Positions 3,967 through 63,336 of a DNA stretch of 64,000 bases are shown here, one piece after another. The number at the start of each line of letters is the position of its first letter. The first letter of the stretch is position 1. The translations under genes were made by a program, and so were the position numbers. Source of the stretch: Gammaproteobacteria bacterium (GTDB lineage Bacteria; Pseudomonadota; Gammaproteobacteria; Eutrophobiales; Eutrophobiaceae). A model generated the notes under the pieces. That model did no database searches, was not told the DNA's origin, and worked only from the letters and a program-made list of their open reading frames with translations. The stretch spans positions 1,738,178 to 1,802,177 of the forward strand of contig OZ253477.1 of the NCBI GenBank assembly GCA_965261775.1. Reading direction: 5' to 3'.

Positions 3967-5031
3967 ATGGCAAAATATGGCCCCTCTCTTTTAATAGGCG
4001 TATTACTGATATTTGTTTTCCCTTTGTGTGTGGTGGTGGGAGCCCCCTCCCCTGCCCATCCGGTCCAGGTAGATAAAGCGGTGATGATAGAGATTTCGCC
4101 ATTCGTCTGGGTCAATGGGACAGTGATCGGTCGTTATGACGCTCGCGTTGCGGCAGAGATTGATGGCAATCTTACAGATATCCTTGATATCGGTGATCAC
4201 GTTAAAGCAGGCGATGTAATCGCTCGGATTGATGACACCTCATATCGTCTTGCCTTGAATGAAGTCAAAGCGGAGATTTTACCGGTTGAGAGCATGCTTG
4301 CATTTTATCAGCGTGAAACGGCAAGACTGGAAAAACTAGCGGAGCAGAATAATGTGGCGAAAAACCGGTTGGATCAAACCCGTGCCAGCCGCGATGAGTC
4401 CATAGCCAGAATCCATGCTATCAAAGCGAGAATGGCGACCGTTCAGGATGAACTGGACAAGACTATGATTCAAGCCCCTTTTGATGGCATTGTGACCGAG
4501 CGTTTAAGCCAACCAGGTGAAAGAGTGGGGGCTGGCGATCAAGTTGTACGTTTGACCAACGTGGAACGTCTGGAGATCCAGGCACGCATTCGTCAGAATT
4601 ATTTTCCCTTTATCAAGCCAAATGATGTTTTGGTAGTAAAGAGCGGTACCGAAGAAATTCAGGGGAGGGTGCGTACTGTCATTCCGGTCGGGGATGATAT
4701 TTCAAGGCTGTATGAGATTCGGGTTGAGTTTAAGCAGACGGACTGGCTCGTTGGCGAGGCGGTGAAACTTGCCATACCTACTGAAAAAAAGCAGACCGTG
4801 CTTGCCGTTTCGCGTGACGCATTGGTGATCAGAAAAGACGGGCTGGTTATCTATAGAGTGAATGAACAAAACACGGCGGAGTTAATCCCTGTTAAAACAG
4901 GTATTTCCAATACCACGCATATTCAAATTATCGGTAACGTGAAAGAAAACGATAATGTGGTGGTTCGCGGCAATGAACGGTTGCAACCGGGACAAAAAGT
5001 AAATGTGATAAGTAACACCGGGCTCCCATGA
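3967..5031 (+). CDS. RND efflux periplasmic adaptor (membrane fusion protein, HlyD/AcrA family)
   Basis: N-terminal TM or signal segment, coiled-coil hairpin region and beta-barrel/lipoyl motifs. It overlaps the RND pump start by 4 nt. An alternative start lies at 3931. Confidence 0.8.
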   Translation: MAKYGPSLLIGVLLIFVFPLCVVVGAPSPAHPVQVDKAVMIEISPFVWVNGTVIGRYDARVAAEIDGNLTDILDIGDHVKAGDVIARIDDTSYRLALNEVKAEILPVESMLAFYQRETARLEKLAEQNNVAKNRLDQTRASRDESIARIHAIKARMATVQDELDKTMIQAPFDGIVTERLSQPGERVGAGDQVVRLTNVERLEIQARIRQNYFPFIKPNDVLVVKSGTEEIQGRVRTVIPVGDDISRLYEIRVEFKQTDWLVGEAVKLAIPTEKKQTVLAVSRDALVIRKDGLVIYRVNEQNTAELIPVKTGISNTTHIQIIGNVKENDNVVVRGNERLQPGQKVNVISNTGLP

Positions 5032-8000
5032 TTGCTACCCGTTTAAGCCTGGCAAACCCGGTTGCCTTGCTAGTCGCTGTTCTGCTTCTGCTTATATTCG
5101 GCCTGATCAGTTTTTTTCGGCTACCCGTTCAGTTAACGCCGGAACTTGAAGAACCCGAGATTACCATCACCACGAACTGGCGGGCCGCGGCGCCGAACGA
5201 GGTTGAGGCGGAAATTGTGGAACCACAGGAAGATGTTTTGAGAGGCTTGCCCGGGCTTGTGGAAATTCGCGCTCAGGCTTATGAAGGTAGGGCGGAGATC
5301 AATCTGCGCTTTGACGTTAATATGGATATGCGTCGTGCCTTGGTTGAAGTCATGAACCGACTCAATCAGGTTCCGGACTATCCCGATGACGCCGATGAGC
5401 CCTCCATATCGACAGTTGGTCAGGATGCACGCGCCATTGCCTGGTTTATCATTAAAACAGCCCCGGGGAATGACCAGCCCGTTGAAACCTACAAAGACTA
5501 TGTTGAAGAAGTCGTTCAGTCCCGTTTTGAACGTATTCCCGGTGTCGCTCGTTCGGAAGTCTATGGTGGTAGTGATCGCGAATTACGCATTACCTTTGAC
5601 CCTTATAAAATTGCCAGTTTTGACCTTCGGCTTGACAAAGTCATGCGATTGGTGGGGACCAGTGTTGATGTTTCTGGCGGTTTTGTAGATGTTGGAAAAC
5701 GTGAATACAGTTTGCGATTTGCGGGCAAATATGGTGCGCGTGACCTAGGGGAAATGATCTTAGATTGGCGAGAAGGCAGGCCGATATACCTGCGTGATGT
5801 TGCCGTGGTAGAAGATCGTTTATCGGACAAGGATAGTTTCGTCTTGACCAAGGGGACGCTTTCCATTGCGATCAACGCGCAACGTGAAACAGGTGTGAAT
5901 GTGTTACAGGTTATGTCCGGCCTGAAACAGGCGGTTGATGAACTTAATGCCGGTGCTCTGGAACGTGCCGGTTTGACGATGGAACAGGTTTATGACGAGA
6001 CAGTTTATATCCATCAGTCCATTAAAATGTTGCGCAATAATCTCGGCCTGGGAATCATTCTGGCGATCTTTGTTCTGTTTTTGTTCTTGTTAAAACCGTC
6101 GGCGACTATGATTGTCGCGACTTCCATTCCTATCTGTCTGATTGCCAGTTTCAGTATGATGGATATGATCGGCACGACGTTGAACGTTATATCACTGGCT
6201 GGACTGGCGTTTGCGGTAGGCATGGTGTTAGATGCTTCCATCATCATCCTAGAAAATATAGTGCGTTTGCGTGAAAAGGGGTTGTCCCCAGAAAAGGCCT
6301 CCCGGCAGGGGACGGATCAGGTCTGGGGTGCTTTGCTTGCGTCAACTCTGACTACTGTTGCTATCTTTTTGCCGGTCGTCTTTCTTCGCGATGAAGCTGG
6401 CCAGCTTTTTTCCGACCTGGCAATTACCATTGCCACCGCTATCAGTTTTTCCCTGCTGGTAGCCATTACGATTGTCCCGACAGCAGCGCGATTGTTTCTC
6501 ACAAATAGAAGATTTGTTGATCCGTATCATCATCTCTGGGAGAGGTTGTGCGGGATCATCATGAATTTGACGTGCACTCCCTTGCGTAGAAGCACATGGA
6601 TTATTCTCCTTATTTCCATCCCGTTTGCAATAATATTTTTTCTAAGACCGCAGGCGGATTATTTGCCAGATGGGAATCAGAACTTGGCCTTCGCCTTTAT
6701 CCTGCCGCCTCCCGGCATTAATATAAACACGCTCGAAAAAGAAATGGGCGCCATCGTCGCGGAGCGCATGCAACCTTATATTGAGGAGGTCAAAGAGCCT
6801 TATGTCCAACACTACTTTTTTGTTGCCTTTTCCCGCGGCGTATTCATGGGTGCGCGGGCGAAACACCATGAGGATGTGGATGAACTAGTTCCCCTGATCA
6901 ATTCGGTTGTGCAGGGTTTTCCAGATACGCTTGCTTTTGCCAAACAATCCTCGTTATTTCGCGGTTTCGGATCAGGTCGGACAATAGATATCAATATTCA
7001 ATCAAAAGATCTGCCGGCCTTGATGGATACGGCATTGCAAGCATTTTTTTCTATTATACCAATATACCCCAATACGCGGCCACAGCCCGGACTACAACTA
7101 TCACAACCGGAACTCCGCCTGATCCCAAATGAAAGACGTATCACCGAAGCGGGGCTGGATCGGTCGTTCGTTGCCGCGTTCATACAGACGCTCGGTGATG
7201 GTCGTTTTATCGGAGATTATTTTGATGGTGAGGAAACGCTGGATATTATTTTACGTTCTACCCCGTGGCGGACCCCGGAAGAACTGGGTACTATCCCGGT
7301 CGTGACGGCGAATACAGGAACCTTGCCTTTAAATGAATTGGTTAATGTTACGCGCACGGCAGGGCCGGAGCAAATCCGCCGCATCAACCGCCGCAGAACG
7401 GTGACGTTGCAGGTGTCTCCGCCGCCGACCACTTCGCTTGAAGAGGCGCTGGAAATTATTCAACATGATATTGCGCCGAAGATTCTCCAGCAATTGCCTG
7501 AAGACGGCGATATCCAGTATGGTGGTACAGCTGACAAGCTAACTACCACGTTGAATAATATGGCTAGCAGCTTTTTGCTGGCGATCACAATACTTTATTT
7601 ATTAATGAGTGCAATGTTCCGTTCTTTCCAGGTGAGTTTATTGGTAATGTTGGTCATTCCGCTCGCGACTTCGGGCGGGATACTGGCATTGCATATCATC
7701 AATCTGTTCACGTTTCAGCCGATGGACTTATTGACAATGATTGGTTTCATTATCCTGCTGGGACTGGTGGTGAATAATGCCATTCTGCTCGTTCATCAGG
7801 CGCGCTCTGCTGAAAGAGCGGGGGCGGATCGGACCAGTGCGGTCAAAGAGGCGATATTAATCAGATTAAGACCCATTATGATGAGCACCCTGACCAGTCT
7901 GTTCGGCATGTTGCCGTTGGCCATTATTCCAGGCGAAGGGACAGAGTTATATCGCGGTCTTGCTCTTGTAATTGTAGGAGGTATGCTGGTGAGTACATTT

Positions 8001-12677: not shown

Positions 12678-13076
12678 CTATTTCGGTCGGACGTATAACA
12701 CTAAACTGTGATCGACCAATTCATAACCGTGTTCTGTTGCAATCTCCTTTTGCAGACGCTCAATTTCCTCATTTTGGAACTCGATTACCGTTCCTGTTTC
12801 CAGACAAATCATGTGGTCATGATGGTCGCCGCGATCTAGTTCAAAGACGGAGTGACCGGAATCAAAATGATGTCGTATCACCAGTCTCGCCCTTTCAAAC
12901 TGGGTCAATACTCGATAAACGGTTGCCAGACCTACCCTTTCATTTTGTTCAAGCAGTATCTTATAGACATCCTCTGCACTGAGATGACGTTCATCCGCCT
13001 CTTCCAGTATCTGTAATATACGCAGTCTCGGCGGGGTGGCTTTAAGACCGACTTTTTTTAAATCCCCTGCTTTCAA
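12678..13076 (-). CDS. fur: Ferric uptake regulator
   Basis: MKAGDLKKVGLKATPPRLRILQILEE...HLSAEDVYK..., HHDH metal-binding motif, 132 aa. fur lies divergent from bamE as in Pseudomonas. Confidence 0.92.
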   Translation of the reverse strand: MKAGDLKKVGLKATPPRLRILQILEEADERHLSAEDVYKILLEQNERVGLATVYRVLTQFERARLVIRHHFDSGHSVFELDRGDHHDHMICLETGTVIEFQNEEIERLQKEIATEHGYELVDHSLVLYVRPK

Positions 13077-13179
13077 AGGGTATCCTCCGGCTGGATTTTT
13101 TACCTATAGTGTGATTATACTATTAAACAATAGAAGTTATTGATGAAATTGACGACAACGATTATTCTGTTTCTCTTCA

Positions 13180-13530
13180 ATGCGAATCAATATCAATCCA
13201 ATGAATAGACTGGTTATTTTACTCTGCTTTCTGTTTTTTCTCTATGCTTGCAGTTCTGCCCAGTTTCCTTATAAAATCAATATCCAGCAGGGTAATGATC
13301 TTAAGCAGGCGATGCTGGACAGACTGGAACCAGGCATGGATAAGGAACAGGTGCAATTTATTATGGGGACGCCAGCAATTCTTGACCCTTTCCATAAGGA
13401 CCGTTGGGACTATATTTACAGCTTTCAGAGGGGAGACAATATCCGCGAACAACGCCATATCACACTACATTTCGAGGACGACAAGCTTATTTACATTTCG
13501 GGCGATGTCCAAGCTGCAGACAGCTGGTGA
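13180..13530 (+). CDS. bamE: Outer membrane protein assembly factor BamE (SmpA/OmlA lipoprotein)
   Basis: Lipobox LYAC, then the GMDKEQVQFIMGTP...RWDYIY motif. Confidence 0.85.
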   Translation: MRININPMNRLVILLCFLFFLYACSSAQFPYKINIQQGNDLKQAMLDRLEPGMDKEQVQFIMGTPAILDPFHKDRWDYIYSFQRGDNIREQRHITLHFEDDKLIYISGDVQAADSW

Positions 13531-13598
13531 TCTGACAAAGACGACATCCTCATGCAGATGACGAGCCGACCGCGAAACGCCAGATGCTATCCGTTTTT

Positions 13599-13892
13599 TT
13601 ACGCTTTGTTTTTCGCCGTTCGTCGACGTCGCATCTCCTTGGGGTCAAGCAGTAATGGTCTGTAAATCTCTACTCTGTCCCCCGTCGCAAGAGTGTCATT
13701 CAGCGAGCGAATTTTACCAAATACACCCACCTTGTTGATTGCCAAATCAATTTCAGAATAATGCGCTAGCAGACCCGATTGCATAATCGCGGTTTCGATG
13801 GTACATCCCTTCTTGACTTCAAGTTCAATGATACTCTGGTTGTCGGGCGTAATATAAATGATCTCAATATTGACCGTCGTTTTATCTTCCAT
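13599..13892 (-). CDS. ratB: RnfH/RatB-family ubiquitin-like small protein
   Basis: VNIEIIYITPDNQSIIELEVKKGCTIETAI with a basic C-terminal tail. It sits next to ratA as in E. coli and Pseudomonas. The ORF track starts it at 13922; an internal Met is preferred. Confidence 0.75.
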   Translation of the reverse strand: MEDKTTVNIEIIYITPDNQSIIELEVKKGCTIETAIMQSGLLAHYSEIDLAINKVGVFGKIRSLNDTLATGDRVEIYRPLLLDPKEMRRRRTAKNKA

Positions 13893-14319
13893 AAACAAAT
13901 TGGGCCCGTTCAATAAACGCATCTATCAGTGAATCCGTGATTTTTTGAAACGGCCTTCCCAAGGCCTGCTGAAGCAGTTTGTTTTTAAACTCAAACTGCA
14001 TTTCCAGCCGTACCGAACAGCCGCCATGGTCGTTATCCTTGAATCGCCAGCAACCCTTTAATGCCTTGAACGGCCCTTTAACGAGCGTTATATAAATTGC
14101 CGTGTCCTTTTGCATCGTGTTGGATGTCGTGAATTGCTGTTTAATACCGCCAACAGCAACAGATATTGAGGCCGTCAACGTATCATCGCCTCTGGCAGTG
14201 ATAGTCGAAGCCGTACACCAAGGTAGAAACTGAGGATAGGATTCAATATCGTTCACCAGCGCGAACATTTGCCCAGCACTGTATGCCTCAATATCAGCTT
14301 GTTTATTGACTCTAATCAA
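13882..14319 (-). CDS. ratA: RatA / SRPBCC (Coq10-like) ribosome-association toxin family protein
   Basis: 145 aa with SRPBCC fold motifs (YSAGQMFALVNDIESYPQFLPWC...). Confidence 0.8.
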   Translation of the reverse strand: MIRVNKQADIEAYSAGQMFALVNDIESYPQFLPWCTASTITARGDDTLTASISVAVGGIKQQFTTSNTMQKDTAIYITLVKGPFKALKGCWRFKDNDHGGCSVRLEMQFEFKNKLLQQALGRPFQKITDSLIDAFIERAQFVYGR

Positions 14320-14343
14320 AACGGCTCCGCGAAACCAACCAGC

Positions 14344-15735
14344 CTAGAATAAACCAAGTGCATTCAGTAAAATGGTGACCACACCCAAAGGAGCAACGTA
14401 GCGAAGCGCATAACGCCAGCATCGATAAACCCAACCGTCTGCCAGCCCCAACTCATCCATCGTTGAACGTTTGGACATTAACCAAGCTGCAAATATTGAA
14501 ATCAACAAACCACCTATAGGTAACATGATACTTGATGCCAAAATATCGAAAATATCAAAGAATCCGTTCTCTTTCGTCTGACCGGCAAAATTGAAAGAAA
14601 ACGCCCAATGATTAAATGATAACACCGTCACCACACCCAGCATCCAAACAAGCCCCCCAGTTATAGCCGTCGCCCTGACCCGAGTCATATCATGGCTTTC
14701 CACCAACCAAGACACCGCCGGTTCCAGCAATGAGATGGCAGAAGTCCACGCGGCCAACATGAGCAGGATAAAAAACAGAGTGCCGAAAAAATTGCCAAAC
14801 GGCATCTGCCCGAATGCGATGGGCAAAGTCATGAAGATTAGTCCAAAGCCGCCGGCAGGGTCCAGACCGTAACTGAATACGATTGGAAAGATGACTATGC
14901 CGGCCAGCAACGCCACGGTGGTATCTGCTATGGCAATCGTGAGGCAGTTAACACTGATGGACGATCTATCGGACAGATAGGAACCATAAATCATGATTGC
15001 GCCCATGCCGAGACTTAGCGTAAAGAATGCATGGCTCAATGCTGGCAAAAGCATGCTGTCAAGGAAACTCTTGTCGGCAATCTGCGCCGTATCAATCACA
15101 AACAGATAACGAATACCCTCCATAAACTTGTCGGTACTCATAGCGTAACCGACCAGGATCAAAAGCAGGATAAACAAGGCGGGCATTAAAAACCGGACAG
15201 CCTTTTCCAGACCGCTTTTCACCCCGCGGGAAATAACAATGATCGTCATCAGGATGAACAGGGTATGCCAGACGAGTAGCTTTTCTGGATCGGAAATCAA
15301 TTCGCTGAATACTTGTGTGGTATATGCTGCCTCACTACCCTCAAATACCCCCGCACTTGTCCTGAATATATAAGCAATTGTCAAACCGGCAATTACACTG
15401 TAGTAGGAAAGAATGATAAACCCGGCAATGACACCCATCCAGCCAAGAAACCGCCAGGCGTGGCTCAAACCTTCTTCGGATGCCAGGGTCGCCATGGTAT
15501 TAATCGGACTTTGGCGTCCCCGACGACCCAGTAATACCTCTGCCATCAGGATAGGAATACCGACAAGAAATATGCAAACCAGATAAACAAATACAAAGGC
15601 GGCGCCGCCGTTTTCACCAGCATGATAGGGAAAGCGCCAGATGTTCCCAAGCCCCACTGCAGAGCCGGTTGCGGCAAGGATAAATGCCCAGCGGGATGAC
15701 CATTGACCATGAATGGAAAAACGTTTTGTTGACAT
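14344..15735 (-). CDS. Sodium-dependent transporter, neurotransmitter:sodium symporter (SNF/NSS) family
   Basis: GNIWRFPY motif with GENGGAAF, 12 TM segments, 463 aa. Confidence 0.85.
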   Translation of the reverse strand: MSTKRFSIHGQWSSRWAFILAATGSAVGLGNIWRFPYHAGENGGAAFVFVYLVCIFLVGIPILMAEVLLGRRGRQSPINTMATLASEEGLSHAWRFLGWMGVIAGFIILSYYSVIAGLTIAYIFRTSAGVFEGSEAAYTTQVFSELISDPEKLLVWHTLFILMTIIVISRGVKSGLEKAVRFLMPALFILLLILVGYAMSTDKFMEGIRYLFVIDTAQIADKSFLDSMLLPALSHAFFTLSLGMGAIMIYGSYLSDRSSISVNCLTIAIADTTVALLAGIVIFPIVFSYGLDPAGGFGLIFMTLPIAFGQMPFGNFFGTLFFILLMLAAWTSAISLLEPAVSWLVESHDMTRVRATAITGGLVWMLGVVTVLSFNHWAFSFNFAGQTKENGFFDIFDILASSIMLPIGGLLISIFAAWLMSKRSTMDELGLADGWVYRCWRYALRYVAPLGVVTILLNALGLF

Positions 15736-16026
15736 AAACCTTTATCCTGCTACTTGGTTATTGATTTTATGTAGGAGTTAACCGGTTCAAAAAGCTATGA
15801 TGATTATAAAGGATTTAAAAAGGGGCCTATATAAAATTCTATCAAAGTGTTTCTTTATCTAATTTTAAGCAGATCGGGCAGGAAGTAAGCTGGATTGTCC
15901 CTAATGGTTCTGTCTTTCTTTAACGATTTCGTTATAGTCTGGTTACAGTAGCCTGCGGGAGTGCAGGCTACGGTCTCATCTACAGAGATATTATTATTCT
16001 CAAAATCCTTGACTATTTCCTGCTGT

Positions 16027-16660
16027 TTACCCTGATTGAAACAGTGGAAATGGGTGGATACTGTAAGTACAAGCATTGCTCGTTCTTGCCGATAAATTTA
16101 TGAACTGCCTGCAACTCAGCACGGCTTTTTTGGTGTCAAGGGTATCTTTAGCTTTACTAATATGCCTATGATAAAGTCTGGTTCCTCGCCTAGAAAGTCC
16201 ATCAATTGATATTTCTTCACATCCTGTTTGCTTAGCGAATGTCCCTCGCACGCTTGTGGCACATTTTACCACCGATAGACGTTTCACTCTCTTCTATCAC
16301 AACTAGGCAAGTCGCCGGTCTGTTCAAGCATTTTTCGTAAATGCTTGTGGCAATCTGTGTATTGCGGGATACCAGCTTTTCGTTCTTTACCCGGCTTATG
16401 CTGATTCTGCCAAAATGCGGAAAAAGCGGCTCGCTTTCCTGCGGTGCAGAACCTCTATATGTTCCCGTTTGGCTTGCTTTTCTGGGAAAGCGCCACCATA
16501 GATTGATACCGATCCAAACTTTCTCGCCTGACGTTGTCTAGTATTACACATCACAGGTTTATAAAAGTCTGGTGGACAGAATTATATTGGTATCGGGCGA
16601 CGCCGATTCTGTGCCGGCCACGAAACTGGCACGAAGGTCCGTTCGTATCTTAAAGAAAGT
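16027..16660 (-). pseudogene. mutM: Decayed formamidopyrimidine-DNA glycosylase gene (mutM/fpg relic) downstream of rpmG
   Basis: Collinear fragments in shifting minus-strand frames match MutM. RQRQARKFG matches VQRRAKYL, FPEKQAKREHIEVL matches LPPEKHDHVDLV, IYEKCLNRPATC matches YLHQKCAKKKTAIK, SIGGKM matches VGVGNIY, and the C-terminal ...AVLSCRQF matches ATFYCRQCQ with the zinc-finger cysteines lost. Several stops and frameshifts interrupt it. The rpmB-rpmG-mutM synteny of E. coli and Pseudomonas predicts mutM at this position. Confidence 0.5.
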
Positions 16661-16667
16661 GCCGGTT

Positions 16668-16823
16668 TTATTTGATCTTCGCTTCCTTGTAAAGGACATG
16701 TTTGCGGATAACCGGATCAAATTTTTTAATTTCCATTTTGTCCGGTTTGGTGCGTTTGTTCTTGGTGGTGGTGTAATAATGCCCCGTATTTGCCGAGGAG
16801 ACGAGCTTTATTTTTTCGCGCAT
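16668..16823 (-). CDS. rpmG: 50S ribosomal protein L33, missed by the ORF track (51 aa)
   Basis: Minus-strand translation is [51 protein letters not shown]. It lies directly downstream of rpmB. Confidence 0.92.
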
Positions 16824-17203: not shown

Positions 17204-17887
17204 TCATAGTAATCCCTTTTCGGCAAAGGAGGTAGTCTTTTTGTTACCGATGATGACATGATCAAGCACTCGGACATCAATCAGAGCAAGGGCCTTTTTC
17301 AGTTCTTTTGTCAATATAATGTCGGCCCGGCTCGGTTCTGCAATACCGGAAGGATGATTATGGGAAAAGATAACAGCGGCGGCGTTATGTTTTATGGCCA
17401 TGCGGATGATTTCTCTTGCGTATACATGAGCAGTGTCAATGGTACCAAAAAAGAGTTTGTTAAAACTGATTAGACGGTGATGGTTATCAAGGTATAAACA
17501 AGCGAATACTTCATGCGGGTAGGAACGCAGTTTCATGCTTAAATATCCCGCCGTTTGTTCCGGGTTGCTGAATGTTTCGCCAGTTTCCAGTCCAGATTGA
17601 AGATAGCGGCGGCCGAGTTCAAGTGCAGCTTGAATCTGGGCATATTTGGCTTCTCCCAAGCCCTTTGTCTGGCAGAATTCATTTTTATCAAGGTCAACGA
17701 TTTGTCGCAATCCTTTGAATTTTCCCAATAGTCTCCGTGCCAGATCGAGTGCAGAGGTACCTTTGCGGCCAGTTCTGAGAAAAATGCATAATATTTCTGC
17801 ATCCGATAACGCCTCTGGTCCTTTTTCAAGCAGTTTTTCTCTGGGCCGTTCATTGACAGGCCAATTTGAGATAGTCATTTGTAACAC
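17204..17887 (-). CDS. radC: RadC/UPF0758 JAB-domain protein
   Basis: N-terminal HhH region (ERPREKLLEKGPEALSDAEILCIFLRTG) and a C-terminal JAB/MPN domain with HNHPSG. Confidence 0.9.
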   Translation of the reverse strand: MLQMTISNWPVNERPREKLLEKGPEALSDAEILCIFLRTGRKGTSALDLARRLLGKFKGLRQIVDLDKNEFCQTKGLGEAKYAQIQAALELGRRYLQSGLETGETFSNPEQTAGYLSMKLRSYPHEVFACLYLDNHHRLISFNKLFFGTIDTAHVYAREIIRMAIKHNAAAVIFSHNHPSGIAEPSRADIILTKELKKALALIDVRVLDHVIIGNKKTTSFAEKGLL

Positions 17888-17976
17888 TCCCTGTTAATTA
17901 TGATTAAAATATATTTTTTAATAATGGCTATATCTCATTATCAGTGCCCGCCTATGATAAGGTAAAATGACATAAG

Positions 17977-19194
17977 ATGTACCGACTGATCGACAATAAA
18001 CATATTCTGCTTGGTGTCACCGGTGGCATCGCCGCCTATAAATCGGCGACATTAATACGTTTATTGCGCCGCCATGGTGCAGAAGTGCGTGTTGTCATGA
18101 CACCCAACGCGACCAAATTTATTACACCATTAACGTTACAGGCGCTTTCGGGGAATCCGGTGCATGTCGAATTGATGGGGGTAACGTCGGAATCGGCTAT
18201 GGTCCATATTGATTTAGCCCGCTGGGCGGATTTGGTCATCGTTGCACCGGCCAGTGCCGGCTTTATTGCCCGCTACGCGCATGGTTTTGCCGATGACCTT
18301 CCGGGGTCGATATGTCTGGCAACAATGTCCCCGGTCATGATCGCCCCAGCGATGAACAGACAAATGTGGTTGAATCCAGCGACTCAGGAAAATCTGCGAA
18401 GGGTAAAGGCATTTGGTGTCCGTATTCTGGGTCCCGCCGAAGGGGATCAGGCCTGCGGTGAAAATGGCCCTGGCCGTATGCTGGAGCCTGAGGAACTTGC
18501 CGAGCGGGTGGTTGAGTCTTTTCAACCGTACAGCCTTGCGGGCATCCGTTTAATGGTCACCGCAGGTCCTACGCGTGAAGCCATTGACCCGGTACGTTTT
18601 ATCAGTAATCGAAGTTCGGGCCATATGGGCTATGCCATTGCCGAGGTTGCCTCTGAGGCGGGTGCCGATGTGTCGGTCATTTCCGGACCGGTCAAACTGC
18701 CCCTCCCGGAAAGGGTTAAAATAACCCGGGTCGTCTCCGCAGAAGAGATGTATGAAAGCGTGATGCGTCAAATTGACGGAATTGATATTTTTATCGCAAC
18801 GGCAGCGGTGGCGGATTACCGGCCACAGTCGACATCCAGAGGAAAGATAAAAAAGCAGGCGCCCCGGCTTGAACTCACACTGGTTAAAAACCCAGATATT
18901 TTGGGGGCGGTGGCGGCGCTTGATAGAACCCCCTTCACTGTCGGTTTTGCGGCTGAAACGGAAAACCTTGAGGCAAACGCCAGGATTAAACTGGATGAGA
19001 AAAAGCTGGACATGATCGTAGCCAATAAGGTCGGTGAAGGTCTCGGGTTTGAAACAAGCATTAATGCTCTGACCATTATCTGGAAGGACGGGCAAAAACG
19101 GCTGGCAGAAGCGCCAAAAGGAAAACTGGCAAGAGACCTGATACGCTTCGTCGCTGATCGCTATCATGCAAAGCGAACCAGTTACATTCACTAG
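17977..19194 (+). CDS. coaBC: Bifunctional phosphopantothenoylcysteine decarboxylase / phosphopantothenate-cysteine ligase
   Basis: ILLGVTGGIAAYKS flavoprotein N-domain and a CoaB C-domain. It lies divergent from radC as in E. coli and Pseudomonas. Confidence 0.93.
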   Translation: MYRLIDNKHILLGVTGGIAAYKSATLIRLLRRHGAEVRVVMTPNATKFITPLTLQALSGNPVHVELMGVTSESAMVHIDLARWADLVIVAPASAGFIARYAHGFADDLPGSICLATMSPVMIAPAMNRQMWLNPATQENLRRVKAFGVRILGPAEGDQACGENGPGRMLEPEELAERVVESFQPYSLAGIRLMVTAGPTREAIDPVRFISNRSSGHMGYAIAEVASEAGADVSVISGPVKLPLPERVKITRVVSAEEMYESVMRQIDGIDIFIATAAVADYRPQSTSRGKIKKQAPRLELTLVKNPDILGAVAALDRTPFTVGFAAETENLEANARIKLDEKKLDMIVANKVGEGLGFETSINALTIIWKDGQKRLAEAPKGKLARDLIRFVADRYHAKRTSYIH

Positions 19195-19269
19195 ATGGTT
19201 GTCTCAATGGTTTACTTCTATCGTCAGATAATTCAATTCGGGCTGGTCTGACCGAAGGAGGTATTTATC

Positions 19270-19731
19270 ATGAAAAGCAAAATCCATCTTATCGCTGCGA
19301 TTACTGGCACGCTGTGCATTAGCGTGTTTTTTATTTCTACGGTGCTGGTGGAGTTGTTTGGTTCGGCGGAAGCTATCAAAACGGTGAAATCGCTGATTGT
19401 CAGCCCCGGATTATTTATTCTGGTGCCGGCCATGGCATTGACGGGCATCACAGGTACCATGCTGGGTAAAGGCCGAACCGCCGGGCTGGTGGGGGCGAAG
19501 CGCAAGCGTATGCCATTCATCGCCGCCAATGGTTTGTTGATTCTGGTGCCTTCGGCGATTTTCCTGGATCAATGGGCATCCGTGTATCACTTCGGCACGG
19601 CGTTTTTTGCCGTGCAGGGGTTAGAACTGGTGATGGGTTCAGTAAACCTGACACTGATGGGGCTGAATATGCGCGATGGGTTGAAGATGAAAGGCAGGTT
19701 TCGGCGAGGACGAGGCAGCGCTGAAGGGTGA
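19270..19731 (+). CDS. Hypothetical small inner-membrane protein, about 4 TM segments
   Basis: 153-aa ORF with a good SD (GGAGG). It is hydrophobic with a basic C-terminus. It occupies the slot where dut normally follows coaBC. Confidence 0.5.
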   Translation: MKSKIHLIAAITGTLCISVFFISTVLVELFGSAEAIKTVKSLIVSPGLFILVPAMALTGITGTMLGKGRTAGLVGAKRKRMPFIAANGLLILVPSAIFLDQWASVYHFGTAFFAVQGLELVMGSVNLTLMGLNMRDGLKMKGRFRRGRGSAEG

Positions 19732-20224
19732 AGGGTTGATCGGGCGGATCAGTCGGGTCAGCCAGACCGGGCGGTTCACGAAGGAGTGTATTAACAGGGC
19801 AGTTTGTCTGTCGCCAAAAATATGCTGGCATAAAATGTAGTGGCGATTGTTCAAGGGAAACTGGTCAAATCCCGGGACATATCTGTCAACGAATGAAACA
19901 TTGGTGGCCGTTGCCGTCGCGAATCAGTCTCATTTTGATAAGGCCTTGAAGTTGGGCTATTTCTGCTTTGGTACCTATGTTTTTGGTGAAACCTCAATTC
20001 CATCGCTCAGAGGCCCCGTTGAACAGACTTAAAAGGGCGGAATGGATAGGCAATACTAATCTGGGAGGGCATTTATTCGAAACATCGGAAGAACATATTG
20101 TCTCGGTGGAACATATCAATAATGGTGCATTTAAATGAATCGTGTAGCTTTAATATCATTGTACTGGAAAGATTGTTTGCAGGTTATTGGTTTGGTGGGG
20201 GGTATATGGACTTAGTTCAACGTG

Positions 20225-20556
20225 CTAATGGGAGAAGTTTGGTTTTGACTGAGAATAGGGAACCCCGAGTATGCGGCAGAAGAGGAGCTGGACTTAATGT
20301 TGATGATACGTGTCGGAAAGTCGCTTATTAGTCGGGCCAACGTGATATCGTTTCAGTAGTCCGGTCAAGTTTCTACGGTTTTTTGATTATTCCTGTTGCA
20401 ATTATTATTGCGCTTTTGGTGGCTATTTTTCTTGTGCTGATTAAACTGAAGCGTATTCTGGCAGAGACGGAAGATAAAGATGGTTATATAAGCTATGAAG
20501 GTACCATCAAGGCGATACCGCCTACCCTTCTAGCCTGCAATGGTTTTAGAGAATAA
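20225..20556 (+). pseudogene. dut: Possible dUTPase relic (dut pseudogene)
   Basis: Weak collinear motif echoes sit in two frames with Dut-like spacing. EPRV-CGRRGAGLNVDD echoes DPRV..SGSAGLDLRA, LIIPVAIIIAL echoes LVPTGLAIHIAD, and DKDGYISYEG echoes IDSDYQGQL. The coaBC-dut-algC synteny predicts dut here. There is no intact ORF. Confidence 0.3.
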
Positions 20557-20579
20557 AGGCTCGGAGGAGGGCAAAGTCG

Positions 20580-21986
20580 ATGAAAAATAATACCGCAATA
20601 CCACAACCTGATATTGCTTCGGTCATTTTTCGCGCATATGACATAAGGGGCATCGTCGGCGAGATGTTAAATGAAGATGTTATTTATGAAATTGCCCGGG
20701 CAGTCGGCACCAAGGCAAATGCGCTTGACCAGCAATGTATCATCGTTGGACGTGATGGTCGAAACTCAAGCGCTGGATTGCTTGGGAGCTTAATCAAAGG
20801 TTTACTTGATACGGGCAGGGACGTTATTGATATCGGGCTAGTCCCGACGCCGGTATTATATTTTGCTACCCACCATTTACAAACGGGTAATGGTATTATG
20901 GTAACGGGTAGTCATAATGCCCCCGAGTATAATGGCCTGAAAATCATGCTGGCGGGTAACTGCCTGAGTGGTGATGAAATCAAGGCGATTCAAACCATGA
21001 TTGGTACCGATGCGCTAGTTTCGGGACGAGGTAATCTGAGTCACGTTGACATGGAGGAGGATTATATTCAGCGTATTTGCGAGGATATGCCGTCCGTGCG
21101 GGGTCACCCGTTAAAGATCGTTGTTGACTGCGGTAATGGGGCGGCAGGCATCATCGCACCCCGGCTAATCAGAGCCATGGGACATGATGTGGTTGAGATA
21201 TACTGTGATATTGACGGTGATTTCCCCGGTCATCATCCCGACCCCAGCCAACCAGAGAACCTGCAGGATCTTATCGCAAAAGTGAAAGCGGAAGGCGCCG
21301 ATATCGGTTTTGCATTTGATGGCGATGGTGATCGCCTCGGATTGGTTGATGCGAAAGGTAATATTATTTGGCCCGACCGGCAACTTATGTTGTTGTGCAG
21401 GGATGTCCTGGCGAGAAACCCGGGGGCACAGATCATATTTGATGTGAAATGCAGTCGCCACTTGGAATCAATTATAGAGATTAATGGCGGACGGCCATTG
21501 ATGTGGAAGACAGGCCATTCTTTTATCAAGAACAAAATGAAAGAGGTGAATGCACCACTCGCTGGCGAGATGAGCGGCCATATGTTTTTCAAGGAGCGCT
21601 GGTACGGTTTTGATGACGCTTTATATACCGCTGCCCGGTTTATTGAGATTTTTACTAGCGTACAGGCCACGCCAACGGAATTGTTTATGGGCTTGCCGGC
21701 AGGGGTCTCCACGCCAGAACTCCGCCTGCCTTTGGCAGAAGCCGAGCATCACGATTTTATGGAAAAATTAACTGAAAAGCTGCTGGTGGCCGGTTCCAGA
21801 TTAATCAGTATTGATGGTCTCCGTATTGAGTACAGTGATGGTTGGGGTTTAGCCAGACCTTCCAACACCTCGCCCTGTATCGTCATGCGTTTTGAAGGAG
21901 AAAGTAAAACCTCGCTTAAGCGTATCCAATCCCAGTTTCGCACTGCCATAAAAGAAGTCAAGGCAGATGCGGAAATACCATTTTAA
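20580..21986 (+). CDS. algC: Phosphomannomutase/phosphoglucomutase
   Basis: Active-site loop TGSHNAPEYNGLK, metal-binding DGDGDR and a sugar-binding C-terminal domain. 468 aa, upstream of argB as in Pseudomonas. Confidence 0.93.
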   Translation: MKNNTAIPQPDIASVIFRAYDIRGIVGEMLNEDVIYEIARAVGTKANALDQQCIIVGRDGRNSSAGLLGSLIKGLLDTGRDVIDIGLVPTPVLYFATHHLQTGNGIMVTGSHNAPEYNGLKIMLAGNCLSGDEIKAIQTMIGTDALVSGRGNLSHVDMEEDYIQRICEDMPSVRGHPLKIVVDCGNGAAGIIAPRLIRAMGHDVVEIYCDIDGDFPGHHPDPSQPENLQDLIAKVKAEGADIGFAFDGDGDRLGLVDAKGNIIWPDRQLMLLCRDVLARNPGAQIIFDVKCSRHLESIIEINGGRPLMWKTGHSFIKNKMKEVNAPLAGEMSGHMFFKERWYGFDDALYTAARFIEIFTSVQATPTELFMGLPAGVSTPELRLPLAEAEHHDFMEKLTEKLLVAGSRLISIDGLRIEYSDGWGLARPSNTSPCIVMRFEGESKTSLKRIQSQFRTAIKEVKADAEIPF

Positions 21987-22942: not shown

Positions 22943-23445
22943 TAAGAGATGATTGCTCTGACACCAAGTCAAACAGACGACAATAGTGAATAAGGGCCTG
23001 CACATCATGCCCGCTGGCCTGTCCGAAGTTGCTCCGTTCCATCATTTTTCCAGAAGGCAAAAATGTTTGAGCCCTGATTGATGAGGAACATTCCGTATTT
23101 GGCTTGATTAATCAGACCATCGGGAATGCGCCTGTCGTCATCAGCCACCATACAGTAATTGTCCAGCTTATATTGGGTTTTGCGGAGAAAACCCGGGAAT
23201 TATGCACATATTGAACAGCAATGTTTTGCTAGACGAGAACGTACAGCTACAAATACGCGCCGTGCCATTTTTTAGATGGTTTGAAATACAGTTACATCAG
23301 ATTTTGCGGGAGGTAAATCTGGTTGAAGGATATAGGGTGTTCAATAATTAGACAACATGGAAGGCAGATGCCTGTTTTCGTGTACAACTCGTTAGTTTGA
23401 GGGAAAATAATAGTTTGGTCAGCAGGCAGGGTTGTTCACATAGCC

Positions 23446-41054: not shown

Positions 41055-42175
41055 GGACAGAGAGGTAAATATGCCGCACCTTGAAAAGGTTGCTCTAATG
41101 AGAGCGATGCCACGACCTCATCAGCAATATTCACATGTCGGTGACTCTTGAAACATTGGATGATATCCAGGGGGCTAGTGCCTACCTTGTTATTATGGTT
41201 TTTTCCTTATTCCCTTTATTGGTATCGATAGTGATCGGGGTCAAAGCAAAATAGAAGCGGGGGCAGGAGATTGGGGGCTATTGACGGCTTGTTAGGTGGG
41301 CATGGATATGACCCGGATCGGGGCAGAAAACTCTCAAAAGAGAAGCGCATATAAAACGTTTCCCATAGTTTACTTTATCCAGAAATGATCTGAATCTTTC
41401 CGATTAAAGCATTAAGGATAAACTAATTACGGATTTACAAAGCCCGCAGGGTCCCGCAATTAAGACCGCAAATCAAACCCATTTTGTGCATCTGGACACT
41501 CAGGTTGTTTCCATTGAAAGGTAAAGTGTATTAGAACCATTTGCGGAGCTCGGTTCCGTTTTGATATATTTGTGCTCGGGGTTTCTCCTAGCAAGACTAC
41601 AAGCAGCTCGAAAGAGAATAATCGAGAGTCATTATCTTAAAGTTATTATCTTAAGGCAAAATTAAGGCAAAAATCGCAGTTTCTGCCATTAATAAACAGG
41701 GGGTAGGAATATTTTAGACTGGAAGGATGATTCTTGTGCGGCTGGAGGGGTATGCGGGTTAACCCAATGTGGATTTTTGGAGCGATATATTGCTAAATAT
41801 GAACTAGTAAAAAAGGTATCTAAAGGAATGGAGACTCGTATGAGTTAAGGCGTCGAATTTAATGTAAGGTAATTAAATTCATAGGGTACAAATACGGTTG
41901 TGGCAAAGAGTGTGATTATATTATTCAGTCTATTTTGAAATTAGCTGCGATCACCTTCGCTTTTACACAAGAAGAAATTAGGGTTAGAGATATATCGTCT
42001 CCATAGCGATGAGATATTTTAAGAATGAGCCAATCGGGTCAAATTGACAGAAGCCTATGAAGCCAGATACGTAATCATTGAAGGTTTTTCGGGGGAAATT
42101 GGCAGATAGCAACAAAAAGACTAATTATCTTGCAGGAGATCAACTAATATGTTGTGTACTAACAGTATATCTATT

Positions 42176-61470: not shown

Positions 61471-62814
61471 TTAATCATATACAGTTGTTTTTAGTAATAA
61501 TGCCAGCATCAGCACAACGATGAGCATCACTGAAAATATCATGATATTTAAAGTGGCTTTACGGTGATGACTAATCCAGCGCATTATTTTTTGCCTGAGA
61601 GACTCTGGTTGTGCATCAATGGCATTACCATACATAAAGTGGCGAATGTCGTTGGCAAAGTCGGAGACTGTTGCGTAGCGATCTTCCGGTAAATATCGTG
61701 TTGCCTTTGCGACAATAGCTAATAACTGTTTCTGTTCATCAGCTTCTTTGGCATAAAGCGATGGCGGATCGATTTGACCGCAGCGGGCTTTCGTTATCAC
61801 CTCATCACTGTCTTTGCCGTTAATGGCACGGAGAAGCGTAACCAGCTCAAACAGGATCAGACCCAGAGAATACAAATCACTGCGATGGTCAAGGATATCA
61901 AGGTCGCCTTCGGCTTGTTCAGGTGACATATAAGCGGGTGTGCCTATTGCCTGACCCATCTTGGTCTTATCCTTATCATGAACCTCATCAGGGTCAATCA
62001 ATACAGTTTTATCACTGAAAGTTTCCCTGTCTACATCAATGGTTTTCGCGATACCCCAGTCCATGACATAAACTTCATTGTAAGGTCCAATCATGATATT
62101 TTTCGGTTTCAGATCACGATGAATGACACCCTTGCGATGGGCATAATGCATTGCATCACAGACCTTGAGAAAGTGTTCCAGGCGGATACGCAGGGTATGA
62201 TACTTATCCGGTTTGCCGTGTGCATCATATTGTTTCCGGGTTTCGCGGATATGATCCTTTAGTGTAATGCCATTAATCAGTTTCATCGTATAACCAGCGT
62301 TATTACGATCACTTTCCACTAAACCATATACCGGCACAATATTGGGATGTTGTAATTGTGCGGTGATCTGGGCTTCCATATAAAAACGCCCGATATAATT
62401 TCGGATATTGCCTATATGCGGGTGTATTTTTTTATAGGCGACGTTGCGATTCAACCTGTTATCACGTGCCACCAGGATTTCGCCCATAGAACCTTCACCA
62501 ATAGACTCAAGGACAGTGTAGTCCCCCACATCCGTGTGTGTACAAGTCGTTTTGTAGACGTCCATATCTGCATTCTGGCGACGTTTCCCGATATTGGTAA
62601 ACCCTTCCGTATATGAAATCGTAGAGAGATCTATCTTTTCCTGTATCTGGATATTTTTGTACTCAGCTTTGCTGATATGCTTATGTCTATAAAGATGCGC
62701 AACGAAATCTTCTTCAGAATGACAACTGTTCGTCACAATATATTCCTCGTAAAGCGATTCCAGCTCAGACGGGCTGATGGAGCTGATAATTTCCTTTATT
62801 GTTTCGGTCAACAT
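61471..62814 (-). CDS. Hanks-type serine/threonine protein kinase with a C-terminal membrane anchor
   Basis: G-loop GEGSMGEI, Lys in VAYKK, catalytic loop HRDLKPKN, DWG in place of DFG, activation loop GTPAYMSPE, and a C-terminal TM helix. An N-terminal ~100 aa is of unknown fold. Confidence 0.85.
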   Translation of the reverse strand: MLTETIKEIISSISPSELESLYEEYIVTNSCHSEEDFVAHLYRHKHISKAEYKNIQIQEKIDLSTISYTEGFTNIGKRRQNADMDVYKTTCTHTDVGDYTVLESIGEGSMGEILVARDNRLNRNVAYKKIHPHIGNIRNYIGRFYMEAQITAQLQHPNIVPVYGLVESDRNNAGYTMKLINGITLKDHIRETRKQYDAHGKPDKYHTLRIRLEHFLKVCDAMHYAHRKGVIHRDLKPKNIMIGPYNEVYVMDWGIAKTIDVDRETFSDKTVLIDPDEVHDKDKTKMGQAIGTPAYMSPEQAEGDLDILDHRSDLYSLGLILFELVTLLRAINGKDSDEVITKARCGQIDPPSLYAKEADEQKQLLAIVAKATRYLPEDRYATVSDFANDIRHFMYGNAIDAQPESLRQKIMRWISHHRKATLNIMIFSVMLIVVLMLALLLKTTVYD

Positions 62815-63336
62815 GGCGGACTTTAATAATTCATGCAGGGTTTCAAATTCAGGTCAAATCGCGCAAGCCGTGCCGCAAACAGGCATAAAATGAGGGTAAA
62901 CTGTCATGGTAACAACTTCCTTTATGAGATCGGGTCAATTAGACAAAAAATAAGAAAACCTTTTATGGAACATACTATCGCTTATAGCTATAGCGCTGAA
63001 ATACTAATCAGGTTATCACAAGAGTAACTGTAGTAACTCATTCAGATAACGCAATCCCCTTACGGTTGGTATTATCGCCTCGCCTTTTGTACAGAATAGC
63101 TGTTTTTGCCGTGCCTGATATATTTTTTCTGTATTATACCGCCAATGGCAAATTGATTCGCCGTGAAAATAAGGCAGCGGGGACACCTTTCAGCAGACGC
63201 ATGGCATTTATCGTAAATTCCGGAGATAAATCCCGTTCATCCAGTGTGTAATAATAACGCCTAGGCAGGCTGTGACACTTGTAATGCCGATCCCGGCGGT
63301 GATATCGGTAATCTTGCTGTGCGCTCCGGCTCAGTT

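Follow-up and report, generated by a model that had tools for sequence, protein, structure and literature searches.

The genes yicR (radC), rpmB, rpmG, and mutM (fpg) stand in that order in one operon in Escherichia coli (Gifford & Wallace 1999, as cited in PMC4725251). Loss or pseudogenization of mutM and of other repair genes is known from the reduced genomes of host-restricted bacteria, including Blochmannia, Sodalis-allied louse symbionts, and Rickettsia (PMC4389277, PMC11137140, PMC1779305), and the presence of mutM correlates with proteome size (PMC3288817). Here, we report on the gene-free interval between rpmG and a sodium:neurotransmitter-symporter-family (SNF) transporter gene in a 64,000-nucleotide stretch of gammaproteobacterial DNA (the window; assembly GCA_965261775.1, contig OZ253477.1, positions 1,738,178 to 1,802,177), and on the moderately probable explanation that this interval is an ancient, eroded relic of mutM/fpg, lying at about 16232-15860 on the minus strand.

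Like the E. coli operon, the locus has radC, rpmB, and rpmG on one strand, followed by Fpg-like sequence on the same strand, and the interval (15736-16667, 932 nt, no strand assigned; presumed relic DNA) is about as long as one fpg gene (813 nt) together with a spacer. Unlike the E. coli operon, the locus has no open reading frame (ORF) at this place, where no more than a faint trace of the last two-thirds of the gene (C-terminal part) is left, and the relatives of this organism keep fpg 4 to 6 kb away behind a desaturase gene and an ABC-transporter cluster. The locus resembles the reduced genomes of host-restricted bacteria in that a repair gene would have become a noncoding relic, in a smallish genome (2.2-Mb contig) with pseudogenes nearby (slmA and a PGM-like gene), but the organism groups with marine and sediment gammaproteobacterial metagenome-assembled genomes. 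The putative relic would also be far older and more eroded than the pseudogenes usually annotated, and no AT drift relative to relatives is visible. It bears a residual resemblance to the Fpg/Nei (H2TH) family (PF01149, PF06831, PF06827) at the start of H2TH (LGPEP; LGEEP here), in the next helix (AIKtFI; AVHKFI here), and in the GGTT.RDF/PGYF or CxxC region; it nevertheless falls below every family threshold, its catalytic N-terminal domain is undetectable, and it has no ORF, which would make it a former member at most. Loss of mutM in reduced genomes is already well documented, and this candidate would be one more instance that leaves existing knowledge unchanged.

The interval holds no gene, encodes nothing now, and makes no Fpg. 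A reading made from the sequence alone (the sequence-only reading) had reported no intact ORF between rpmG and the SNF gene in a gap of about 850 bp; the gap is in fact 932 nt, and its ORFs span 25 to 88 aa (the longest, 73 to 88 aa). In-frame hexamer scoring, with 48 kb of long ORFs from the window as the training set, gave values near zero there (mean best-frame log-likelihood ratio, −1.5 on the minus strand and −3.0 on the plus strand) versus +16 to +20 for the flanking genes. A functional Fpg would need a continuous ORF of about 270 codons, and none is present; the Fpg-like segments are spread over three different frames and separated by stops.

These segments were detected with a custom dynamic program that matches a protein or profile to DNA and permits frameshifts, stops, and flat-cost jumps between collinear segments; several variants of this home-made chaining statistic were tried. 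The main profile was a position-specific matrix derived from a 6-sequence Fpg hidden Markov model (HMM). It scored 72.7 on the minus strand of the interval versus 47.1 on the plus strand, and the reversed profile scored 50.5. The minus-strand score was equaled by 1 of 526 other 932-nt chunk-strands of the window (mean, 43.7; standard deviation, 7.2), 0 of 1,296 chunk-strands of relatives' loci (GC content, 38 to 50%; true fpg genes set aside), 0 of 300 dinucleotide shuffles (z, 4.8), 1 of 300 profiles with permuted columns, and 4 of 300 in which blocks of 12 columns had been shuffled. Four of the five top-scoring chunks of the window (548 chunk-strands) overlapped the interval's minus strand, and a spacing-aware variant, which charges for nonproportional spacing, gave 71.7 (equaled by 3 of 1,822 null chunks). 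The dinucleotide shuffles are an unsafe null on their own, since a decoy surpassed them as well; chunks of real genomic DNA, permuted profiles, and decoy families took their place. Six decoy profiles (desaturase, RadC, RatA, Fur, Dfp, and SNF) were unremarkable on the interval, and among 49 family profiles built automatically from relatives' loci and scored on both strands, the two Fpg profiles ranked first and second on the minus strand. With single Fpg queries, the same segments recurred from query to query and the best score was 82, compared with 66 ± 7 for residue-shuffled Fpg and at most 53 for reversed Fpg.

The residual similarity is Fpg specific, strand specific, and collinear, and by this custom statistic, with frameshifts and deletions allowed, it exceeds chance on one strand. 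As the statistic was custom-made, variants were tried, and a second profile was weaker, we give the significance of the Fpg signal as a range, p of about 0.0005 to 0.013, according to profile and null. Outside the interval, the highest chance Fpg chain scores (73.0 and 80.1, in two variants) were at 17476-18407 and 61979-62910, both on the minus strand; these two chunks sit in intact, unrelated genes, and the tail of the statistic amounts to about one such score per 500 to 2,000 chunks.

The score was calibrated with the fpg gene of one relative's locus (L163), which was not part of the scoring profile. With 60% of its sites overwritten (about 45% observed differences) and 10 indels, this gene scored a median of 77, and with 70% of its sites overwritten it scored 46; simulated fpg genes still scored at least 138 when up to about 38% of nucleotides differed and 10 indels were present. 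On this model, 72.7 would fit a gene in which about 45% of nucleotides differ and indels are numerous, so that the relic would be barely within reach of detection. Should it be real, a gene diverged by about 45% escapes routine tools and is recovered by chaining weak profile matches across frames.

Within the interval, the signal appears to support the C-terminal two-thirds of Fpg alone (about profile columns 118-271, window 16232-15860). Fpg columns 110-271 scored 61.1 against 15736-16260 of the minus strand (equaled by 0 of 472 chunks of the window and 1 of 2,327 chunks of relatives' loci), and columns 1-117 against 16233-16667 of the same strand reached only the 18% level of the null. With that score and with unstable alignments, the N-terminal fragments QRRAKYL and EKHDHVDL named in the sequence-only reading did not hold up, and its VGVGNIY match was not confirmed. 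Its span for the relic, 16027-16660, has to be shifted, since the supported part reaches about 170 nt beyond the left edge.

The first stable core segment, SKQDVKKYQLMDFLGEEP (16179-16232, minus strand), corresponds to Fpg profile columns 118-135 (..dplqHkLl..LGPEP, the start of H2TH), ends at the invariant LGPEP, and was found in place by five of seven single Fpg queries, by both profile dynamic programs, and by hhalign. The second, HQKSRAELQAVHKFI (16135-16091, minus strand; Fpg 146-160), is in a different frame from the first, and 43 nt separate the two versus 30 nt expected; the minus-strand stretch HQKSRAELQAVHKFIGKNE (16078-16137) matches profile columns 145-164 (..srkrtqaIKtfiMDs..), in hhalign with a P value of 0.073. 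LFQSG (16030-16044, minus strand), which follows after 46 nt versus 51 nt expected, is a weak match to Fpg 178-182 (eSLFlaG) that appeared only in the spacing-aware alignment and with one single query (L016). Farther on, the C-terminal Fpg-like stretch TPAGYCNQTITKSLKKDRTIRDNPAYF/CPICLK (15863-15962, minus strand) contributed strongly and, with the two core segments, makes up the score of 61.1. Its assignment is ambiguous, as two placements compete, one at GGTTlRDF..GkPGYF (profile 205-236) and the other in the zinc-finger region (profile 244-271, where CPIC stands against CxxC). A zinc-finger tail had been placed within 16027-16090, but the best C-terminal matches lie outside that span, at 15962-15863; a single CxxC-like CPIC occurs at 15880-15869, where the sequence fits other parts of Fpg just as well, and no second pair was found. 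Spacing in the spacing-aware alignment of six segments was close to that of a real gene, with profile gaps of 18, 183, 30, 51, and 135 nt at the five successive junctions and corresponding DNA gaps of 23, 205, 43, 46, and 133 nt.

Routine homology searches gave a different picture. Using tblastn with E. coli Fpg (53% identical to the L163 Fpg in a seven-sequence alignment) against the 64-kb window, a check that had been proposed with the sequence-only reading, we found no match in the interval and no mutM elsewhere in the window. The ORFs of 160 relatives' loci (8,779 + 6,883; 15,662 altogether, six or seven genuine fpg genes among them) gave only noise when compared with the interval by tblastn, and blastn of the interval against the same loci matched the ends of the flanking genes only; the interval is unconserved there. 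No Pfam family was found in any of the six frames at an E value of ≤10, Fapy_DNA_glyco, H2TH, and zf-FPG_IleRS included. The best score of hmmsearch (--max) with the Fpg HMM was −0.9 bits, which 23% of dinucleotide shuffles equaled. Each minus-strand frame was compared with the seven-sequence Fpg alignment by hhalign (P values, 0.11, 0.27, and 0.073), and the top matches of two of these frames were collinear and correctly spaced. A search of 5.8 billion proteins with three minus-strand and three plus-strand frames (E value, ≤10) returned no homologue, and phmmer with the three minus-strand frames against PDB returned no Fpg and one spurious Tetherin-Nef match. A frameshift-tolerant Smith-Waterman comparison with linear gaps was dropped after a borderline score and inconsistent alignments. 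In positive controls, HMMER detected a real fpg gene with 30% random substitutions and 8 indels in every trial and at 40% substitutions in 83% of trials; because it still detects those genes, any relic here must be more eroded than they are.

The interval lies between two conserved gene blocks. On its right lie rpmG (16668-16823; Pfam Ribosomal_L33), rpmB (16836-17072/17105; Ribosomal_L28), and, preceding rpmB, radC (17204-17878; RadC), all on the minus strand, and then coaBC/dfp (17977-19194; DFP), which is divergent from radC. On its left, the SNF transporter gene (14344-15735, minus strand; Pfam SNF) heads an SNF-ratA-rnfH-bamE-fur block (12678-15735) that is conserved in 80 metagenome loci (L081 to L160). 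None of these 80 loci has rpmG upstream of the SNF gene; most have a divergent smpB or a Ser/Thr kinase-like 800-aa gene there. Since smpB is not adjacent here, the SNF end of the interval marks a rearrangement breakpoint, and since relatives never join the rpmG and SNF blocks, the interval is a lineage-specific junction.

On the rpmG side, the nearest species representatives share only 56 to 64% RadC identity with this organism. Among about 31 loci of species representatives with radC-rpmB-rpmG, fpg adjoins rpmG in none and lies 4 to 6 kb downstream on the same strand in six, and many of the loci have a convergent fatty-acid desaturase gene of about 390 aa directly after rpmG. Over all sets, about 34 relatives have radC-rpmB-rpmG, none has fpg beside rpmG, and seven have it 4 to 6 kb downstream on the radC-rpmB-rpmG strand. 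The three closest relatives, retrieved via a protein database (RadC 75 to 79% identical), have rpmG followed by the convergent desaturase; the sole relative above 80% RadC identity (P0002, 91%) is a 1.4-kb contig that ends before rpmB. On the 110-kb contig of L163, rpmG is followed by the desaturase gene (opposite strand), a four-gene ABC cluster, and fpg on the rpmG strand. The sequence-only reading had called the position syntenic, which is right in the E. coli sense and for the strand and the few kilobases downstream in relatives, and wrong for adjacency; as fpg adjoins rpmG in none of the relatives examined, a multikilobase deletion must be assumed. On one metagenome contig (L117), an Fpg/Nei-family gene (4483-5355, minus strand; 32% identical to E. 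coli Fpg) lies directly upstream of the SNF homologue (at 5435) and is transcribed divergently from it; it is probably a coincidence because its orientation differs from that of the relic.

Because the nearest relatives carry a desaturase gene after rpmG, the interval was also compared with that family. Collinear weak matches form a possible remnant of the convergent FA_desaturase gene on the plus strand (16209-16658), consisting of IFLH (16209-16220), PVCSSIFRKCLW (16315-16350), LCIAGYQLFVLYPAYADSAKMRKKRLAF (16355-16438), and two further matches at 16497-16565 and 16623-16658. The best frame of a desaturase HMM (hmmsearch) was on the plus strand (1.8 bits; 1.3% of shuffles equal that), with two adjoining collinear matches, one of them LCIAGYQLFVLYPAYADSAKMRKKRLAF against ..GGEELHNNHHAFASSAKFS... 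The same segment corresponds to ..GGeeLHNNHHAfasSAK.. with all His lost, and in the plus-strand fragments every His of the boxes HRKHH and HNNHH is replaced. The desaturase chain score was 60.4 on 16170-16667 of the plus strand, a value that 0.8% of the chunks from the window and 0.7% of those from relatives also attained. Over the whole interval, 10% of chunks equaled its score (z, 1.1 to 1.2), and the SNF-proximal half had no desaturase signal (70% level). The rpmG-proximal half may thus derive from the convergent desaturase gene, a tentative assignment because the split into Fpg and desaturase parts was chosen after the data were seen. A composite of desaturase on the plus strand and the fpg C terminus on the minus strand would match the order and orientations in relatives, minus the intervening genes. 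Another plus-strand segment of this half, DRIILVSGDADSVPATKLARR (about 16580), had been guessed by eye to be an NYN-domain remnant, and neither Pfam nor the protein search supported it.

Several of these results weigh against a mutM relic. The standard methods were all negative, and no catalytic or diagnostic motif is intact: PELPEVE (Pro2, Glu3), invariant in all seven reference sequences, is absent from the interval, there is no GNIY, and the His and Cys ligands are uncertain. The positive evidence comes from one home-made statistic, whose significance varies with the profile. Residue-shuffled single queries equaled the real score in 3% of trials, and the automatic Fpg profile, which has a divergent Fpg-like protein in place of E. 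coli Fpg, scored only 65.8, a value equaled by 1.3% of chunks. Beyond the two core segments, the same DNA aligned to different parts of Fpg between runs; the Arg-rich RQRQARKFGSV in the rpmG-proximal half, for instance, aligned to three different Fpg motifs. The adjacency of fpg and rpmG occurs in no relative, those compared across this region reach 75 to 79% RadC identity at best, and the division of the interval between Fpg and desaturase was post hoc. These points lend themselves to the main competing account, a clearly less likely one but a serious one, in which the interval is a plain spacer or rearrangement scar between conserved blocks, without mutM ancestry, and the Fpg-like fragments are due to chance. 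It would account for the failure of every standard homology tool, the documented synteny break at the 80 SNF loci, the recurrence of similar Fpg scores in chance chunks (about once in 500 to 2,000), the p of only 0.013 with the alternative profile, and the unstable segment assignments. It accounts poorly for a signal that is specific to one family and one strand and that falls at the one place predicted beforehand, with Fpg first of 49 families, while the reversed profile, the plus strand, and the decoys stay at background; the segment spacing is also proportional to that of a real gene, and demonstrable pseudogenes lie nearby. A decayed mutM downstream of rpmB-rpmG, as the sequence-only reading had it, is in our view the best-supported explanation of the interval. 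Its collinear minus-strand fragments in shifting frames were borne out weakly, by the chaining score and by no standard tool, with a faint signal and no clear alignment.

The remaining accounts explain less. We consider it improbable that the interval is a desaturase relic alone, on the plus strand, with a spurious Fpg signal. The 391- to 393-aa FA_desaturase convergent with rpmG in the three closest relatives and many others speaks for it, as do the plus-strand hmmsearch frame and the fragments on 16170-16667, but the unremarkable score of the whole interval, the lack of signal in the SNF-proximal half, and the loss of all histidine-box residues count against it, and it leaves the stronger minus-strand Fpg signal in 15736-16260 unexplained. 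An intact mutM broken by sequencing or assembly errors is a negligible prospect. Nothing beyond the position favors it; 72.7 matches about 45% differences, and an fpg gene at ≤38% plus 10 indels would score at least 138. Such error rates are impossible in an assembly with intact flanking genes, and sequencing error is excluded because the relic is more eroded than anything that the HMMER controls still detect.

A functional interval, that is, a structured 5′ leader or regulatory RNA for the SNF gene, a small RNA, or novel small proteins, seems very unlikely. The interval folds more stably than its shuffles (z of −3.6 on the minus strand and −2.1 on the plus strand; 20 shuffles per strand) and contains two strong hairpins with no strand assigned, one at 15945-15974 (12-nt arms, 92% complementary; 6-nt loop) and one at 16325-16347 (9-nt perfect arms; 5-nt loop), and the promoter of the SNF gene must lie somewhere inside it. 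Small ORFs considered under this account are at 16027-16287 (86 aa) and 15855-16076 (73 aa). Because the extra folding is seen on both strands, however, it looks like the effect of palindromes in the DNA and not of a strand-specific RNA, and because no T-run follows, neither hairpin is a classical terminator. The 116 nt next to rpmG and the 165 nt next to the SNF gene (z of the latter, −0.27) fold like shuffles, with no terminator or leader structure identified in them; an Rfam scan of the interval found no match at an E value of ≤1, no ORF of the interval has a coding signal or a homologue, and the interval is unconserved in the 160 relatives' loci. A promoter and terminator scan of the interval gave nothing useful, and a tRNA scan, a plasmid collection, and a search for repeats shared with the rest of the window yielded nothing for it. 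It is likewise quite improbable that the relic was co-opted, with the dead mutM sequence providing a promoter plus a structured leader or small RNA (the two hairpins) that controls the SNF gene or terminates rpmBG and is kept by selection.

If the interval is a mutM relic, the SNF-proximal half (about 16232-15860, minus strand) would be the eroded C-terminal two-thirds of a gene once cotranscribed or co-oriented with radC-rpmB-rpmG, and the rpmG-proximal half would perhaps be the remains of the convergent desaturase gene. In the history we infer, deletions would have collapsed an ancestral 5 to 6 kb (desaturase, four ABC genes, and fpg) to less than 1 kb, and the remaining DNA would have drifted to about 45% nucleotide difference with many frameshifts and stops. 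The rpmBG transcript would now end somewhere in the relic, and the SNF promoter, which must lie inside the interval, would come from relic sequence. Any effect on 8-oxoguanine repair or on the mutation spectrum is something that we can only infer. An old loss of Fpg would thereby be dated in a gammaproteobacterial lineage with a small genome (about 2.2 Mb), which would be relevant to modeling the mutation spectrum of this organism. The G:C to T:A drift that the sequence-only reading predicted from such a loss shows no sign at the coarse level of GC content: the window has 46.6% GC versus 41 to 45% at the loci of the three closest relatives, and the GC content at third codon positions of radC and dfp is not lower.

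Signs of gene erosion lie within 8 kb of the interval, on a source contig of 2.21 Mb. The gene slmA, which encodes a nucleoid-occlusion factor of the TetR family, is a pseudogene at 22989-23348 (plus strand; 33% identity to L163 SlmA; tblastn E value, 2e−13) with three in-frame stops and deletions, and only a 49-aa ORF is left. In the PGM/PMM-like gene, the membrane-anchored N-terminal domain (19892-20517, plus strand; E value, 1e−17) is broken over three frames with a stop, and the intact catalytic part (20550-21986) now starts at about 20550; the protein has 845 aa in L163. The dUTPase gene dut, which sits between dfp and the PGM-like gene in L162 and L163, is absent at 19195-19890, and its place is taken by a 153-aa hydrophobic ORF without a family (19270-19731). 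Because of these nearby pseudogenes, the prior for dead genes in this genome is higher, and a dead mutM would join the dead slmA, the missing dut, and the truncated PGM-like gene as evidence of erosion. This context fits reductive evolution, and nothing in the window shows host restriction. Several stretches of about 1 kb annotated as intergenic would then probably be dead genes. A second gene-free stretch (41055-42124, about 1.07 kb), between a beta-carbonic anhydrase gene and a DUF4399 gene, may be another eroded gene because it has no Pfam match in any frame, and a smaller gap lies at 984-1660.

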